A stretch of 35,498 nt of DNA, from the IMG/VR virus record IMGVR_UViG_2740892487_000006; one strand, written 5' to 3'. Shown piece by piece: positions 29,812-33,016 of the stretch. How positions within the stretch are numbered: the stretch's first letter is position 1; each line of letters begins with the position of its first letter. Source of the stretch: a virus (Duplodnaviria > Heunggongvirae > Uroviricota > Caudoviricetes). A model generated the notes under the pieces. That model ran no database searches, was not told the origin of the DNA, and was given only the letters and a program-made list of their open reading frames with translations. A program made the position numbers and the translations under genes.

Positions 29812-30444
29812 TCAGGACTGACTACAACCAAAATTACGCATACCATCAGAACTGTCTTTGGTAGCGAGCTTTGTTAAATATGACAAACTGCGATCAAGTT
29901 GACTGTAATAGTACTCAAAGTTTTTACCCTTCCTATCCAGCCTGAAATCCCCTTCCTTAACAAAATGCACCAGCGGGTAATACTTTTGATAATCAGGCGT
30001 GACATTGAGACTCAGCGTTCTCACCCAGGCTTCCATAATCATTAATGCCAGATTATGGATATACAGGCCTTGTATGGGGTAATAGGTACCCGCATTGCAG
30101 TACACATCGTTATTCAGCATCAATGCCACATGATAATGCTTCTTGCCCTTTTCTTCACCAAACTCTCTCGACCAGGCATAACGAACATTACAGGAGCGAA
30201 TACGTTTACCCTCTGCGGCTTTACGTTTCTGCGTATGTTCAATCTGAGATTTTAAAGATTCAATAAACCGGGTTATCAATTTAGGGTCTGCCTTGTAATG
30301 TTCATAATTCTCATCAGGCAATCTTAGTATGAGATTTAACACAAACGTCCTTGGGTATTCCTGTAAAGACTTATCAAGTGTTTCACGAATACGATCCATA
30401 TGATGCTGATTACTCAGTCCAAAAGGACTGATGAATGTTTTCAC
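29812..30444 (-). CDS. YfjJ/YagK-family protein (inovirus Gp2-like), typical of CP4-type islands
   Basis: 210-aa ORF preceded by a very AT-rich promoter region; family assignment from memory, moderate. Confidence 0.55.
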   Translation of the reverse strand: MKTFISPFGLSNQHHMDRIRETLDKSLQEYPRTFVLNLILRLPDENYEHYKADPKLITRFIESLKSQIEHTQKRKAAEGKRIRSCNVRYAWSREFGEEKGKKHYHVALMLNNDVYCNAGTYYPIQGLYIHNLALMIMEAWVRTLSLNVTPDYQKYYPLVHFVKEGDFRLDRKGKNFEYYYSQLDRSLSYLTKLATKDSSDGMRNFGCSQS

Positions 30445-31041
30445 GTTTAGCTCCTGATGTTAATCATCTCAATACAATAGACTGGATATGTAATTTATTA
30501 CTGTTATTTATATTTGGTATCATTGCCATGGGAGTGTGATAATACTAAATACAATACTTCTTTATTATTATAATACCAATCAACCACAGTTATTCTTCTG
30601 CATGTTAAATTTGCAATAGAAGAAGGAAACATCTAAAAACGTCAATTAACTTGCATAATATAGTCCGTAATTACTCCGAAGTTATAACATCTAAAACAAC
30701 TAATACAAACCTGTATTAATCTTGTTGATTCTTAATATCTCGATTAATACGTATCCCAATAAATTTCACACCTATATCACTAAAACGAACCACAACAGAT
30801 ATTCGTTTCCAGCTTGTATCTTGTTGATCTGCAACTCCGATCGATACTCAAATTAAGATAGTCACTGACTATCAATTAAATGTTATTGATCGTTTTTATG
30901 ATAGATAAAAGCGATCAATTTCAGCAAATCGATCTGTATTAACGATTATCCCATCCCCTGCCAAATGCATACGATTGGATGGCCTCAGACAAAGCTCAAA
31001 GGCCATTTTTATCTTATAAAACACTCAGTAAGGATTTTTTT

Positions 31042-31476
31042 ATGTTGAAGATAACCTCTGCACTGCTCTTGAGTGCCACGCTGTTCAGCGCCGCTTCGCA
31101 CGCCATGGGTCGGGAGCAGCAATGGGGTAGCTGGTTTGGCACTATCAATGTGATGGAGTTTGAACTTAACACCGACAACAGCGCAGGCGAACGCATGACT
31201 CTGACCTGCCGAGACAATCAGCTGGTCGTGGGTTACAGCGCACCAGATAAAGCTCATGCGGAAACGCCCGACGACGGACAAAAAACGGTGGGACTGAATA
31301 TCAACGCAGTACATTACCAGCCTGGCGAGGCGGCCTTTATGGCGCTTAAAAATACAAATGATGATGGTCGAATTGAAGTCACCCAGATGAACGAGCCTTT
31401 ATCTCACCTCTTTAAAACTACAGGGCTGCATGACGCATTGCAGGACCTGACCTGGGAAGACTGCATTAGCCATTAA
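31042..31476 (+). CDS. Putative secreted protein of unknown function (Sec signal peptide)
   Basis: MLKITSALLLSATLFSAASHA signal-like N-terminus from ATG 31042 (the track ORF begins at 30979); RBS AGGA upstream. Confidence 0.6.
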   Translation: MLKITSALLLSATLFSAASHAMGREQQWGSWFGTINVMEFELNTDNSAGERMTLTCRDNQLVVGYSAPDKAHAETPDDGQKTVGLNINAVHYQPGEAAFMALKNTNDDGRIEVTQMNEPLSHLFKTTGLHDALQDLTWEDCISH

Positions 31477-31535
31477 TCCTCTCCCCCACTACAAATTCAC
31501 CCGTGCCGTTAACAATAATGAATAAGGATGTCTTT

Positions 31536-32375
31536 ATGACGACATTAATTTCACGCATGATTTTATTCTGTGCTCTTTCATTTCCGGCATTCAGCTTTGC
31601 CATCACCATTCAAGGCAATATTCATCCTGAGCGCTTCACCTTCTTTCTGACGGAGAAAGGCGGTGAAATGCTGCGTGATATGAACAATGAGGCAGTCAGC
31701 GTCAAACTCAACAATAAAGCCGGTTTCAACGCTGAGGCACAAAGTAAGGCTGCGGCGGCAAATATATCTCCCTTGCTGTATGCCGCCTCACCGCTTGAAC
31801 AGAACTTTATCCGCTACGACGGAAAGCCTGTAAAAGCCCTGACCTGTCTCATCACCACTCGCACCATGCCGGGCCAGAACAAAAACTATGCATGGGAGGA
31901 AACCTACTGCCTGGATGAAACTGGTGCGGCCTACATTGGCACTAAAGGCTGGCCGTCTCGCACTATTTTCAGTAAGAGCTGTGCCGTGGGCGCTGCTGAT
32001 TGCCCTGTTTACCTGAGCATGAACAACGACCCGCCAACCCTGCGTAACGATACTGTTCAATATGTTCCTTACAACCGCGAACGCATGAATGGGCAGAAAG
32101 AACATAATCCTGAGCCAAAACCAACGCCTGCGGAAACCGTTACAGAGCAGGACGGTTATGTGGTGAGTTTTGTAAAAGCCAGCAACTGCGCAGACAACAA
32201 GCTCATTGTGAAAAATACAAGCTCGGGGAAAAGCGCTGTAATTGCAGGACTAAACGGGTGCACGTTTGATCCAAAGACTAATGCAGTCATCATCTTTACC
32301 CAAAATGAATACGTCGGCGTTTACAGTGGCCCCACTAACGCTTCTCAGGAAATAGCCTCCGCAGATCTTCCCTAA
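31536..32375 (+). CDS. Putative secreted Cys-containing protein of unknown function (Sec signal peptide)
   Basis: MTTLISRMILFCALSFPAFSFA signal-like N-terminus from ATG 31536 with RBS AAGGA; six Cys in the mature part. Confidence 0.6.
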   Translation: MTTLISRMILFCALSFPAFSFAITIQGNIHPERFTFFLTEKGGEMLRDMNNEAVSVKLNNKAGFNAEAQSKAAAANISPLLYAASPLEQNFIRYDGKPVKALTCLITTRTMPGQNKNYAWEETYCLDETGAAYIGTKGWPSRTIFSKSCAVGAADCPVYLSMNNDPPTLRNDTVQYVPYNRERMNGQKEHNPEPKPTPAETVTEQDGYVVSFVKASNCADNKLIVKNTSSGKSAVIAGLNGCTFDPKTNAVIIFTQNEYVGVYSGPTNASQEIASADLP

Positions 32376-32421
32376 TCACTCACCCTGTCCGGTATACGCT
32401 TCCTGCGATGCCGGACGTCTT

Positions 32422-32970
32422 ATGGACTTACCAATGAAAAACGCAAAATCGCCGGGCGATGCCGTGCCAGAAGAGCAATCGTTGGATCTGACCTGGCCCA
32501 TTGTTTTCAGTGTCGCCGGACTCACGCTGCTGCGAAGCAAATCAGTTGTATGCCAGACGCTCGGCGCAACCCTGACAACGCTCAGCCTGATAAGACTTAT
32601 AAAAAAAACTCGCCACCCTTGCCTGACAAATTCGTTTTCAGGCAAGCGGTCTATATCTGTGTCTAAAACTCAATCGCTGATGAAATATCAACGCTGGTTG
32701 CAACGCGCTGCTATCGACGGACTTTCCGTCGTTGCGGAGAAAACACTCAATGATGATGTCTTTATGTTATCCGTATGCACTAAAGTCTACCGTCGCTTGC
32801 CGCTGCCCATCAGAAGAGTCGTTAAGTGTGAATGGTGTCTTCAATATCTGCAGTACAGTAAGCCCATAATTCTGAGACGATTACAGAATCTTCGAGCCCA
32901 CACTGAAAATTCCTCTGCATTACCCAAGAATGCATCGGCCGAACAGCAACAACCCACGTCATTGCCCTGA
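32422..32970 (+). CDS. Hypothetical protein
   Basis: 182-aa ORF with no recognisable family; supported only by the intrinsic terminator directly after its stop. Confidence 0.35.
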   Translation: MDLPMKNAKSPGDAVPEEQSLDLTWPIVFSVAGLTLLRSKSVVCQTLGATLTTLSLIRLIKKTRHPCLTNSFSGKRSISVSKTQSLMKYQRWLQRAAIDGLSVVAEKTLNDDVFMLSVCTKVYRRLPLPIRRVVKCEWCLQYLQYSKPIILRRLQNLRAHTENSSALPKNASAEQQQPTSLP

Positions 32971-32987
32971 AAACTTCCTCTCAAGCC

Positions 32988-33016
32988 AGAACCACTCTTC
33001 GGAGTGGTTTTTTTAT
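32988..33016 (+). terminator. Intrinsic terminator
   Basis: ACCACTC-ttcg-GAGTGGT at 32991-33008 followed by a 7-T run. Confidence 0.6.

Follow-up and report, generated by a model that had tools for sequence, protein, structure and literature searches.

A conserved GATC array with OxyR-like half-sites upstream of two exported-protein genes on a CP4-type island: a candidate OxyR/Dam switch

In the literature consulted (sources including PMC2909390 and PMC4856963), just three switches of the OxyR/Dam class are described, namely agn43, gtr and opvAB; each of them alters the cell surface, with effects on phage sensitivity, immunity or biofilm formation. The gtr region is responsible for phase variation of O-antigen glucosylation in phage P22 and Salmonella, and in that study the same sequence signature correctly foretold phase variation of untested operons (Broadbent et al., 2010, PMC2909390). 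The opvAB region is known from Salmonella enterica (Cota et al., 2012/2016, PMC3350482, PMC4856963). In gtr and opvAB a half-site spacing of 31-32 bp is characteristic of reduced OxyR, and the oxidation state of the protein is irrelevant for switching (PMC2909390, PMC4856963).

Here we describe a region in a viral sequence of 35,498 bp (the window, i.e., the whole stretch of DNA that was analysed) which a preliminary description had proposed to contain a Dam-dependent phase-variable promoter, controlled through either OxyR or Lrp and likened to agn43 and pap. The assignment to the Dam/OxyR kind is supported at the sequence level by OxyR-consensus half-sites, their spacing of 31-32 bp, colinearity with gtr, an agn43-like design and conservation; its nearest relatives, however, are gtr and opvAB and not agn43 or pap. 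We consider it probable that the region of about 30826-30982 is a cis-acting OxyR/Dam epigenetic switch controlling the operon at 31042-32375.

Layout of the regulatory region

Five GATC sites lie at exactly the positions originally reported, 30826, 30839, 30888, 30913 and 30931, and the chance expectation of about 0.4 sites given with them is matched by a local first-order Markov estimate for 109 bp (~0.4). The density of the whole window (83 GATCs in 35,498 bp) gives an expectation of 0.25 per 109 bp. The cluster is the densest in the window, with three sites in the runner-up, and since 0.76% of random placements of the 83 sites reach at least five within 109 bp (P ~0.008), the single-sequence statistic is just moderate. 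The palindromes noted earlier are also present (GATC2 and GATC5 within ATCGAT, GATC2 and GATC3 within GATCG), and the intergenic region is indeed AT-rich (32% GC). The ATG at 31042 follows the cluster at a distance of 108-216 bp, and the GATC spacings of 13, 49, 25 and 18 bp are not multiples of the helical repeat.

The comparison covered 62 distinct regulatory regions related to this one, drawn from at least 10 genera; 13 loci were retrieved through protein or BLAST homology. Half-sites were scored out of ten against the OxyR consensus ATAGnTnnnAnCTAT. The features of the region are as follows, with the strand in brackets where one is assigned.

30761..30775: conserved block AAATTTCACACCTAT upstream of the array, scoring 8/10 as a half-site; outside the portable module
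30826..30829: GATC1, in the 5' arm of half-site A (gATCT)
30827..30841: half-site A, ATCTGCAACTCCGAT, centre 30834, 5/10, with two GATC arms
30839..30842: GATC2, in the 3' arm of half-site A (CGATc); CCGATCGA invariant in 13 loci
30858..30872: half-site B, ATAGTCACTGACTAT, centre 30865, 8/10, GATC-free
30888..30891: GATC3, in the 5' arm of degenerate half-site C; aligns with gtr GATC3
30889..30903: remnant of half-site C, ATCGTTTTTATGATA, centre 30896, 5/10; 3' arm lost in the window
30901..30915: half-site D, ATAGATAAAAGCGAT, centre 30908, 9/10
30913..30916: GATC4, in the 3' arm of half-site D; present in 62/62 sequences
30931..30934: GATC5, in the 5' arm of half-site E; invariant in the 13 homology-found loci
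30932..30946: half-site E, ATCTGTATTAACGAT, centre 30939, 7/10; 5' arm formed by GATC5
30946..30951 (+): putative -35, TTATCC, 3/6 match, one base in common with half-site E
30970..30975 (+): putative -10, TACGAT, 4/6 match; predicted start near 30982
30980..31015 (+): hairpin in the leader (TGGCCT...AGGCCA) with a T-run behind it, terminator-like
31042..31476 (+): cargo gene 1, product of 144 aa with two conserved Cys; N-terminus resembles a signal peptide by eye
31536..32375 (+): cargo gene 2, product of 279 aa; N-terminus resembles a signal peptide by eye

A scan for OxyR motifs across the GATC sites placed the GATCs in the arms of OxyR-consensus half-sites, a GATC standing in for the consensus ATAG or CTAT arm in A, D, E and the C remnant. 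Three sites scoring at least 8 occur within 206 bp, compared to 0.23 in local shuffles (P=0.0005), and half-site D is the sole 9/10 match in the 35.5 kb window, matches of at least 9 having a background rate of 3.8e-5 per position (972 kb of background DNA). The sole mismatch of D to the consensus is the one that generates GATC4. D scores 9/10 in 48 of the 62 sequences and retains CGAT in all 62, although CTAT would fit OxyR better, which points to selection for the GATC itself. Half-site B reaches 10/10 in 24/62 sequences; its arms ATAG and CTAT are 98-100% conserved, its inner positions 5-11 (including T6 and A10) just 42-66%.

Half-sites A and B are 31 bp apart in the window (31-32 bp among the 62 sequences), D and E are 31 bp apart in 62/62, and B and D are separated by 43 bp (42-44 bp). 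B-C is also 31 bp, both for the window's remnant and in loci with an intact C, and C and D overlap. At C the subfamily of the window is one nucleotide short (ATGAT versus ATCGAT); the half-site is intact in the viral contigs L087 and L089 (ATCGTTTTTATCGAT, 8/10) and scores 7/10 in Yersinia pekkanenii (ATCGACATTATCGAT). Half-site A scores 6-7/10 in most relatives versus 5/10 here. The window thus carries a weaker version of the family (A 5/10, B 8/10, the 3' arm of C lost, a sixth GATC absent), and given these weaker sites its predicted switching could be biased or locked.

A promoter inside the GATC cluster, as assumed in the preliminary description, was not recovered by a stricter sigma-70/terminator consensus scan, and because such simple scanning remained empty we turned to a conservation-aware promoter scan. 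The top-conserved promoter-like element in all 13 loci was TTATCC-N18-TACGAT (30946-30975), and the promoter is most likely located downstream of the cluster. This sigma-70-like element adjoins half-site E and is a weak consensus match; its -35 reads TTATCC in 12/13 loci and TTATCT in the remaining one, and its spacer is fixed in length (18 bp) and variable in its letters. Relatives carry hairpins of unrelated sequence with a U-run 5' of the start codon, as does the agn43 leader. A hairpin and U-run directly after the predicted start is awkward for a start near 30982. As an Rfam search of the region gave nothing at threshold, it does not represent a known RNA. A minus-strand terminator call at the B palindrome by the simple consensus scan was rejected as spurious, and the small ORFs 30722-30856 (+) and 30896-31024 (-) were discarded as genes on account of 1-2 nt indels in relatives and tetramer-wise conservation.

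Comparison with gtr, opvAB and agn43

From GATC1 through GATC3 the P22 gtr region is colinear with the module (alignment, z up to 15 versus shuffles). In both, a pair of GATCs 13 bp apart forms the two arms of half-site A (gtr OxyR(A) is ATCGGTAACAACGAT), a GATC-free consensus half-site B follows about 31-32 bp downstream, which in the Scandinavium copy is identical to OxyR(B) of P22 gtr, and GATC3 belongs to the 5' arm of the half-site after B. The predicted logic would also be shared, with mutual exclusion of OxyR and Dam and alternative half-site pairs setting ON and OFF. However, there are three half-sites and four GATCs in gtr, where the promoter overlaps C and the start lies 33 bp past GATC4. 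The gtr half-site C carries the GATC3/4 pair, 13 bp apart, and overlaps the -35, whereas C of the module is degenerate and unpaired: there is no GATC 13 bp past GATC3, and the next one is 25 bp away in another half-site. The module instead has the additional half-sites D and E with GATC4 and GATC5, and its putative promoter lies beyond E. It also differs in its cargo, two exported proteins without a GtrA-like match rather than gtrABC, and in its host element, a CP4-type island rather than a P22-like prophage.

The comparison with opvAB was made by published coordinates rather than by DNA alignment. Both regions have four main half-sites over 105 bp, with spacings of 32-41-32 in opvAB and 31-43-31 in the module, and if the start near 30982 is correct, and only then, half-sites A, B, D and E would lie at -148, -117, -74 and -43, compared to -148, -116, -75 and -43 in opvAB. 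In both, the proximal half-site scores 7/10 and adjoins a poor -35, and its 5' arm includes a GATC at -49.5 (in the module, as counted from the predicted start). The order of site strengths differs (strong-weak-strong-weak in opvAB, weak-strong-strong-weak in the module), as does the number of GATCs, namely four in opvAB with two of them outside half-sites, but five to six in the module with two in one half-site. The promoter hexamers GTGAAT/TAAAAT and TTATCC/TACGAT are unrelated.

With agn43 (flu, E. coli CP4-44) the module shares the design of half-sites D and E, i.e., ATAG...CGATc followed by gATC...CGAT at a distance of 31-32 bp. The first agn43 half-site, ATAGAATAAAACGAT, resembles D, and the second, ATCGTTTATATCGAT, 32 bp away, is designed like E. 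Both regions have a terminator-like leader hairpin just 5' of the Shine-Dalgarno sequence and belong to the same kind of island, with DUF932, antirestriction, RadC and YeeU/CbtA neighbours. But agn43 has a single operator with three GATCs over -10/+1 and OxyR acts there purely as a repressor, whereas the D+E pair of the module has two GATCs, precedes the predicted -35 and is linked to a gtr-like A-B-C; moreover, its cargo is not an autotransporter.

Conservation, cargo and distribution

In a first alignment of ten of the 13 homology loci, seven genera were represented (Escherichia, Enterobacter, Kluyvera, Scandinavium, Photorhabdus, Buttiauxella and Yersinia). All five GATCs are invariant in 13/13 homology loci although mean column identity is just 66-75%. 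Nearly all invariant columns of 30824-30975 (13 loci) map to GATCs, to half-site arms or to the putative -35/-10, and the stretches between the GATC sites vary freely among relatives. Among the distinct regulatory sequences, 62/62 have the GATC1+2 pair (13 bp apart) as well as GATC4, and 56/62 have GATC3; for GATC5 the count of 62/62 is partly circular, as the pattern that retrieved the metagenome loci already included GATC5 and site E. That pattern gave 64 hits, 11 of which were dropped as chance matches (no GATC array, no cargo homologue). The sixth GATC, in TACGATC, occurs in 52/62 relatives and has been lost in the window, which reads TACGATT. Judged from these patterns, the GATC/half-site array is under strong purifying selection, and its conservation is the decisive evidence.

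The two downstream genes had been described as encoding exported proteins, and their N-termini, MLKITSALLLSATLFSAASHA and MTTLISRMILFCALSFPAFSFA, are signal-peptide-like by eye. Neither protein had a Pfam or NCBIfam match. For cargo gene 1 an AF2 model with a pLDDT of 81.6 was obtained, and a fold search with this model yielded no significant match; the model for cargo gene 2 was poor (pLDDT 58.6). The nearest cargo proteins are from Enterobacter hormaechei. Upstream of the region, at 29812-30444, lies a Gp2/Rep-related gene of the YagK/YfjJ (Gp2-like) type, and the island has the neighbours named above for agn43. Neither dam nor oxyR lies within the 35.5 kb window; the host probably has both genes, given that every host of the family belongs to the Enterobacterales.

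Throughout the family (67/67 loci), and also in the viral contigs L087 and L092, the module is located directly 5' of an exported or membrane-protein operon and faces it. It is often parted from yagK by other genes, or found without yagK. In L087 and L092 the segment from GATC1 to TACGATC fronts unrelated cargo, and the similarity to these modules stops at the -10. The upstream block at 30761..30775 is missing 5' of the modules in L087, L092 and L089. The cassette is widespread; the mobile islands that carry it come from Enterobacter, Escherichia, Cronobacter, Pantoea, Citrobacter, Kluyvera, Yersinia, Photorhabdus and others. Among the carriers are E. coli W (NC_017635, with the module near 4,052,500), E. 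coli G3/10 and isolates of Enterobacter hormaechei. BLAST searches with the regulatory region had no match among phage genomes and, among plasmids, were limited to a single E. coli copy and a Klebsiella fragment of 59 bp.

Predicted switching and alternative readings

In the OxyR/Dam switch that we propose, reduced OxyR tetramers would bind pairs of half-sites 31-32 bp apart and, when bound, would protect the underlying GATCs from Dam, and methylated GATCs would in turn exclude OxyR, as deduced from gtr, opvAB and agn43. Through this mutual exclusion, one of two self-perpetuating states should result after replication. In one state OxyR would occupy D+E (near -74 and -43, beside the -35), possibly together with A+B, and GATC4/5 (and 1/2) would be kept unmethylated. 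In the other, GATC4/5 would be methylated and OxyR would be found upstream only, on A+B, or on B+C where C is intact. As C and D overlap, occupancy of B+C and of D+E should be mutually exclusive. We assume that D+E occupancy corresponds to ON, by analogy with opvAB, whose proximal site at -43 and requirement of OxyR for expression suggest this polarity; it is the least secure step of the model. The leader hairpin might serve in attenuation or insulation as in agn43, and the output would be heritable ON/OFF heterogeneity in two exported proteins.

An ordinary peroxide-responsive OxyR promoter, with incidental GATCs and uniform expression without epigenetic memory, seems unlikely. The half-sites do fit the OxyR consensus well, and sites of the OxyR regulon often end near -40, but GATCs are retained precisely where the OxyR match suffers from it (CGAT in D and ATCT...CGAT in A, both 62/62), the spacing of 31-32 bp is that of reduced OxyR in gtr/opvAB, and several alternative half-site pairs exist, like in the proven switches. 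Quite unlikely is a Dam-sensitive switch in which another protein binds ATAG-N7-CTAT, either a LysR-type regulator such as HdfR at std or a regulator encoded on the island. T-N11-A dyads are common to LysR-type regulators, and small HTH regulators are found close to the cassette on such islands; against this stand the match to the full ten-position OxyR consensus (10/10 for B in 24/62), the colinearity of the upstream half with gtr, where OxyR binding was demonstrated (PMC2909390), and the occurrence of the module amid unrelated neighbours in L087 and L092, a point in favour of a host-encoded factor.

The array could also be thought of as having a non-transcriptional role, as a SeqA-sequestration or replication site for the YagK/YfjJ (Gp2-like) gene, or as a chance AT-rich cluster, given that a Gp2/Rep-related gene lies upstream, that origins carry GATC clusters and that the single-window P is just ~0.008. 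We regard this as highly improbable in view of the orientation of the module towards exported or membrane-protein operons in all the loci mentioned, its frequent separation from yagK and the lack of helical-repeat spacing, and chance is excluded by conservation of the array across genera. Even less credit can be given to the Lrp variant of the original proposal, a pap-type switch in which two key GATCs, separated by about 102 bp, would be read by Lrp together with a PapI-like co-regulator, and for which we found no support. It shares with the module a GATC cluster in the regulatory region 5' of exported products, GATC1 and GATC5 are 105 bp apart, and T- or A-runs flank GATC3 and GATC4 in the window. 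These flanks are, however, not kept in relatives, nor are the surroundings of the GATCs conserved as Lrp boxes; no papI/papB-like or fimbrial gene was recognized among the neighbouring ORFs submitted to Pfam/NCBIfam, and the conserved dyads are of OxyR type, with GATC1/GATC2 forming a gtr-type 13-bp pair.

Returning to the OxyR/Dam switch, the module would represent a fourth architecture of this kind, a portable bistable promoter of composite build, travelling as a cassette of about 150 bp with differing cargo. It is conceivable, albeit tentatively, that it constitutes a portable toggle of five OxyR half-sites, not previously described, in which a gtr-type A-B-C is combined with an agn43-type D-E and a fixed weak promoter, and which, moving as a cassette between islands and prophages, makes arbitrary envelope cargo phase-variable. 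If so, a pair of OxyR tetramers combined with five to six GATCs might allow for more than two methylation states or for tunable switching rates, and the main cargo would represent a new phase-variable periplasmic family that possibly affects interactions between phage and host. The exported cargo family is flagged as likely bet-hedging factors of the surface or periplasm. The model predicts which GATCs should be unmethylated in ON versus OFF cells and which half-site pairs should be held by OxyR, and the variants of the module would offer a natural experiment on half-site strength and number versus switching rates.

With respect to published methylomes, the Xenorhabdus paper contained nothing relevant to the module, and the one on Photorhabdus TT01 reports four always-unmethylated GATCs 5' of plu1732, which we mention as a lead only.

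The GATC cluster and its genomic setting

All five GATC sites reported in the preliminary description (30826, 30839, 30888, 30913 and 30931; GATC1 to GATC5 hereafter) were found at exactly these positions, in an interval which is as AT-rich as claimed (32% GC). The window holds 83 GATC sites in 35,498 bp versus 136 ± 10 in dinucleotide-preserving shuffles, and this under-representation makes the local cluster more conspicuous. The window density predicts 0.25 sites per 109 bp; with a local Markov model the expectation is about 0.4, the value put forward originally. The cluster at 30826-30934 is the densest GATC cluster in the window, and at least five sites within 109 bp occurred in 0.76% of trials with 83 randomly placed sites. 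Judged from this single sequence, the cluster is suggestive rather than compelling.

The cluster lies in the AT-rich intergenic region between a YagK/YfjJ gene and two ORFs referred to here as cargo, 108-216 bp upstream of an ATG (31042) preceded by AAGGA. The leftmost 28 kb (1-28396) represent a lambda-like prophage late region. DUF932, antirestriction, RadC and CbeA-antitoxin genes are found to the right of the cargo ORFs; this right part is a CP4-44/CP4-57-type island backbone, and in CP4-44 of E. coli K-12 this same backbone carries agn43.

Genes of the window
2561-3094, lysozyme (prophage late region)
7130-8746, terminase gpA (prophage late region)
8958-10505, portal (prophage late region)
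12204-13229, capsid E (prophage late region)
16652-19189, tape measure (prophage late region)
21592-24990, tip protein J (prophage late region)
26117-28396, tail fibre (prophage late region)
28422-29390, minus strand, IS5-family transposase at the junction between prophage late region and island
29812-30444, minus strand, YagK/YfjJ (Gp2-like)
31042-31476, cargo ORF1, 144 aa, signal-peptide-like N-terminus (by eye)
31536-32375, cargo ORF2, 279 aa, signal-peptide-like N-terminus (by eye)

Neither cargo protein matched a Pfam or NCBIfam family, and every homologue is annotated as hypothetical. These homologues occur in Enterobacter, Cronobacter, Pantoea, Citrobacter, Kluyvera, Yokenella, Scandinavium, Hafnia, Atlantibacter and Escherichia, the nearest to ORF2 being from Enterobacter hormaechei (99% identity). 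A 640-bp gap (32376-33014) separates ORF2 from the DUF932 gene and contains only unconvincing ORFs of 182 aa (plus strand; no Pfam or NCBIfam match) and 89 aa (minus strand); relatives are annotated with a 60-aa hypothetical gene at this position.

Related loci were collected by protein homology (species genomes), by BLAST (E. coli genomes) and by a 20-nt pattern scan (metagenome contigs). Homology yielded 13 loci, ten of which (Escherichia, Enterobacter, Kluyvera, Scandinavium, Photorhabdus, Buttiauxella, Yersinia) entered a first alignment. Among 5,426 E. coli genomes, 3 had a close cargo homologue and 26 the regulatory module alone, and the pattern scan returned 53 true members and 11 chance hits. 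The five GATCs are invariant in the 13 homology-retrieved loci at a mean column identity of just 66-75%, and nearly all invariant columns within 30824-30975 fall in a GATC, an ATAG/CTAT tetramer or two downstream hexamers. Since cargo proteins diverge to 36-45% identity in loci which still keep the GATC elements, the regulatory region is more constrained than the genes downstream. The features of the window are shared by near-identical copies (L032, cargo identity 98.6% and 99.3%). In E. coli W (L016, 5218-6701) an IS3 insertion truncates the first cargo gene, with the upstream module intact.

GATC conservation in 62 distinct regulatory sequences
GATC1 and GATC2, 13 bp apart: 62/62
GATC3: 56/62
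GATC4: 62/62
GATC5: 62/62, in part a result of the pattern used for the metagenome scan
Sixth GATC, in TACGATC 42 bp after GATC5: 52/62 (TACGATT in the window)

An array of OxyR-like half-sites

The scan for OxyR motifs over the GATC sites proposed earlier placed GATC1, 2, 4 and 5 in the arms of half-sites A, D and E. Half-sites were scored against the 10-position consensus ATAGnTnnnAnCTAT, counting as was done for opvAB, the Salmonella enterica OxyR/Dam switch.

OxyR-like half-sites in the window
30827-30841, A, ATCTGCAACTCCGAT, 5/10 (usually 6-7/10 in the family)
30858-30872, B, ATAGTCACTGACTAT, 8/10 (10/10 in 24/62)
30889-30903, C, degenerate, 5/10, with GATC3 in the 5' arm
30901-30915, D, ATAGATAAAAGCGAT, 9/10, the only such site in the window
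30932-30946, E, ATCTGTATTAACGAT, 7/10, with GATC5 in the 5' arm

Both arms of A are replaced by GATC-forming variants (GATC1, GATC2), and GATC4 results from the sole mismatch of D (CGAT for CTAT), which 62/62 sequences share. In B, the arms are 98-100% conserved and the inner positions 42-66%. Three sites scoring at least 8 lie within 206 bp, versus 0.23 in local shuffles (P = 0.0005), and the per-position frequency of matches of at least 9 was 3.8e-5 across 972 kb of unrelated background DNA. Centre-to-centre spacings are 31 bp for D-E (62/62), 31 or 32 bp for A-B and 42-44 bp for B-D; at gtr and opvAB, the reduced OxyR tetramer has been described on half-sites 31-32 bp apart (PMC2909390, PMC4856963). 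Half-site C, centred 31 bp from B and sharing 2 nt with D, has intact copies in viral contigs L087 and L089 (ATCGTTTTTATCGAT, 8/10), and the Yersinia pekkanenii copy (ATCGACATTATCGAT) matches at 7/10; in the subfamily of the window, the loss of one nucleotide destroys its 3' arm. A further conserved block, AAATTTCACACCTAT(ATCAC) at 30761-30775, 66 bp upstream of A, is present in 13/13 island loci and matches the consensus at 8/10; being absent upstream of the composite module in viral contigs L087 and L092, it lies outside the cassette.

Scored in the same way, the gtr switch of phage P22 contains three half-sites spaced by 32 bp: A (ATCGGTAACAACGAT) at 8/10, B (ATAGATAAAAACTAT) at 10/10 and C at 8/10, with a GATC pair at 13-bp spacing in each of A and C. 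From GATC1 through GATC3 it is colinear with the module family in alignments (z = 15 against shuffles for Scandinavium, 6.5 for the window), and its B site is identical to that of the Scandinavium copy. The K-12 agn43 operator, ATAGAATAAAACGAT and ATCGTTTATATCGAT at 32 bp, has the same half-site design as D and E. As both comparisons match, the array resembles a composite in which a gtr-type unit (A-B-C) is followed by an operator of agn43 type (D-E).

Candidate promoter, leader and predicted switching

A conservation-aware sigma-70 scan of the 13 loci ranked TTATCC (30946-30951)-N18-TACGAT (30970-30975) highest as candidate promoter, its -10 being invariant (13/13) and its -35 present in 12/13; the 18-nt spacer is constant in length and differs in sequence between subfamilies. 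With the predicted start near 30982, half-sites A and B would lie at -148 and -117, and D and E at -74 and -43, positions that would agree with those of opvAB, where half-sites scoring 10, 8, 10 and 7 lie at -148, -116, -75 and -43, the proximal one adjoins a poor -35 and expression needs OxyR (PMC4856963).

Between predicted start and Shine-Dalgarno sequence we find a GC-rich terminator-like hairpin with a T-run (30980-31015). Relatives have U-run hairpins of unrelated sequence upstream of the start codon, by 20-35 nt in most loci (L009, 3939-3969; L016, 5154-5190; L010, about 3950-3975; L003, 1979-2012), so that this structure is maintained through at least three unrelated sequences. The agn43 leader also contains a terminator-like hairpin, the 3' end of IsrC. 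The hairpin could be an attenuator, a read-through insulator or a 5' stabiliser, and its recurrence suggests a second regulatory layer, attenuation or insulation, common to these switch-controlled operons.

In gtr, OxyR on AB activates (ON) and on BC represses (OFF), methylation abolishes OxyR binding and OxyR blocks Dam (Broadbent et al., PMC2909390). While the sequence itself shows the array of half-sites, with GATCs in their arms and a kept spacing, and the promoter-like element next to it, the following steps are modelled on gtr, opvAB and agn43. After replication, OxyR and Dam would compete. In one state OxyR would hold D+E, and probably also A+B, leaving GATC4/5 (and 1/2) unmethylated and assisting RNA polymerase from -43. 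In the other, methylated GATC4/5 would limit OxyR to the upstream sites, either A+B or, in copies with an intact C, B+C; OxyR on B+C would rule out binding at D+E, since C and D share nucleotides. Which state would be ON is the weakest part of this scheme. The window copy, with A, B and C slightly eroded and lacking the sixth GATC, may for these reasons depart from the family norm in its switching bias. The Dam-dependent phase-variable promoter originally proposed is supported in a Dam/OxyR form, its functional claims standing as predictions.

In the Photorhabdus TT01 methylome, four GATCs upstream of plu1732, a possible copy of this cassette, were unmethylated under all conditions (PMC6092372); the present module occurs in a Photorhabdus akhurstii genome (L007).

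Modules upstream of other genes

The complete composite module (A to E and TTATCC-N18-TACGATC), with C intact, was found in L087 (about 1259-1519, minus strand) and L092 (4145-4405), facing genes for a membrane protein of 184 aa and a secreted one of roughly 210 aa, which are unrelated to the window cargo and without Pfam match. Similarity stops directly after TACGATC. Its occurrence before unrelated cargo identifies the module as a mobile regulatory cassette. OxyR/Dam epigenetic switches are an already known kind of system, and our literature search found no paper describing this cassette; its architecture (five half-sites, five to six GATCs, a gtr-like joined to an agn43-like unit) appears to be new, as do the cargo genes and the module's portability between different cargo.

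Phase variation in two more gtr operons was correctly predicted from the gtr sequence signature (PMC2909390). Scanning viral contigs for the gtr-type A-B-GATC3 pattern (GATC-N9-GATC ... ATAG-N7-CTAT ... GATC) retrieved P22-like gtrA. The pattern also lies upstream of a FimA-type fimbrial operon (L086/L099), of Acyl_transf_3 (O-acetylase-like) genes (L094/L102), of small zinc-ribbon membrane proteins followed by lipoproteins (L088/L095/L100/L107) and of a lipoprotein (L093). All four groups are further candidate OxyR/Dam phase-variable loci.
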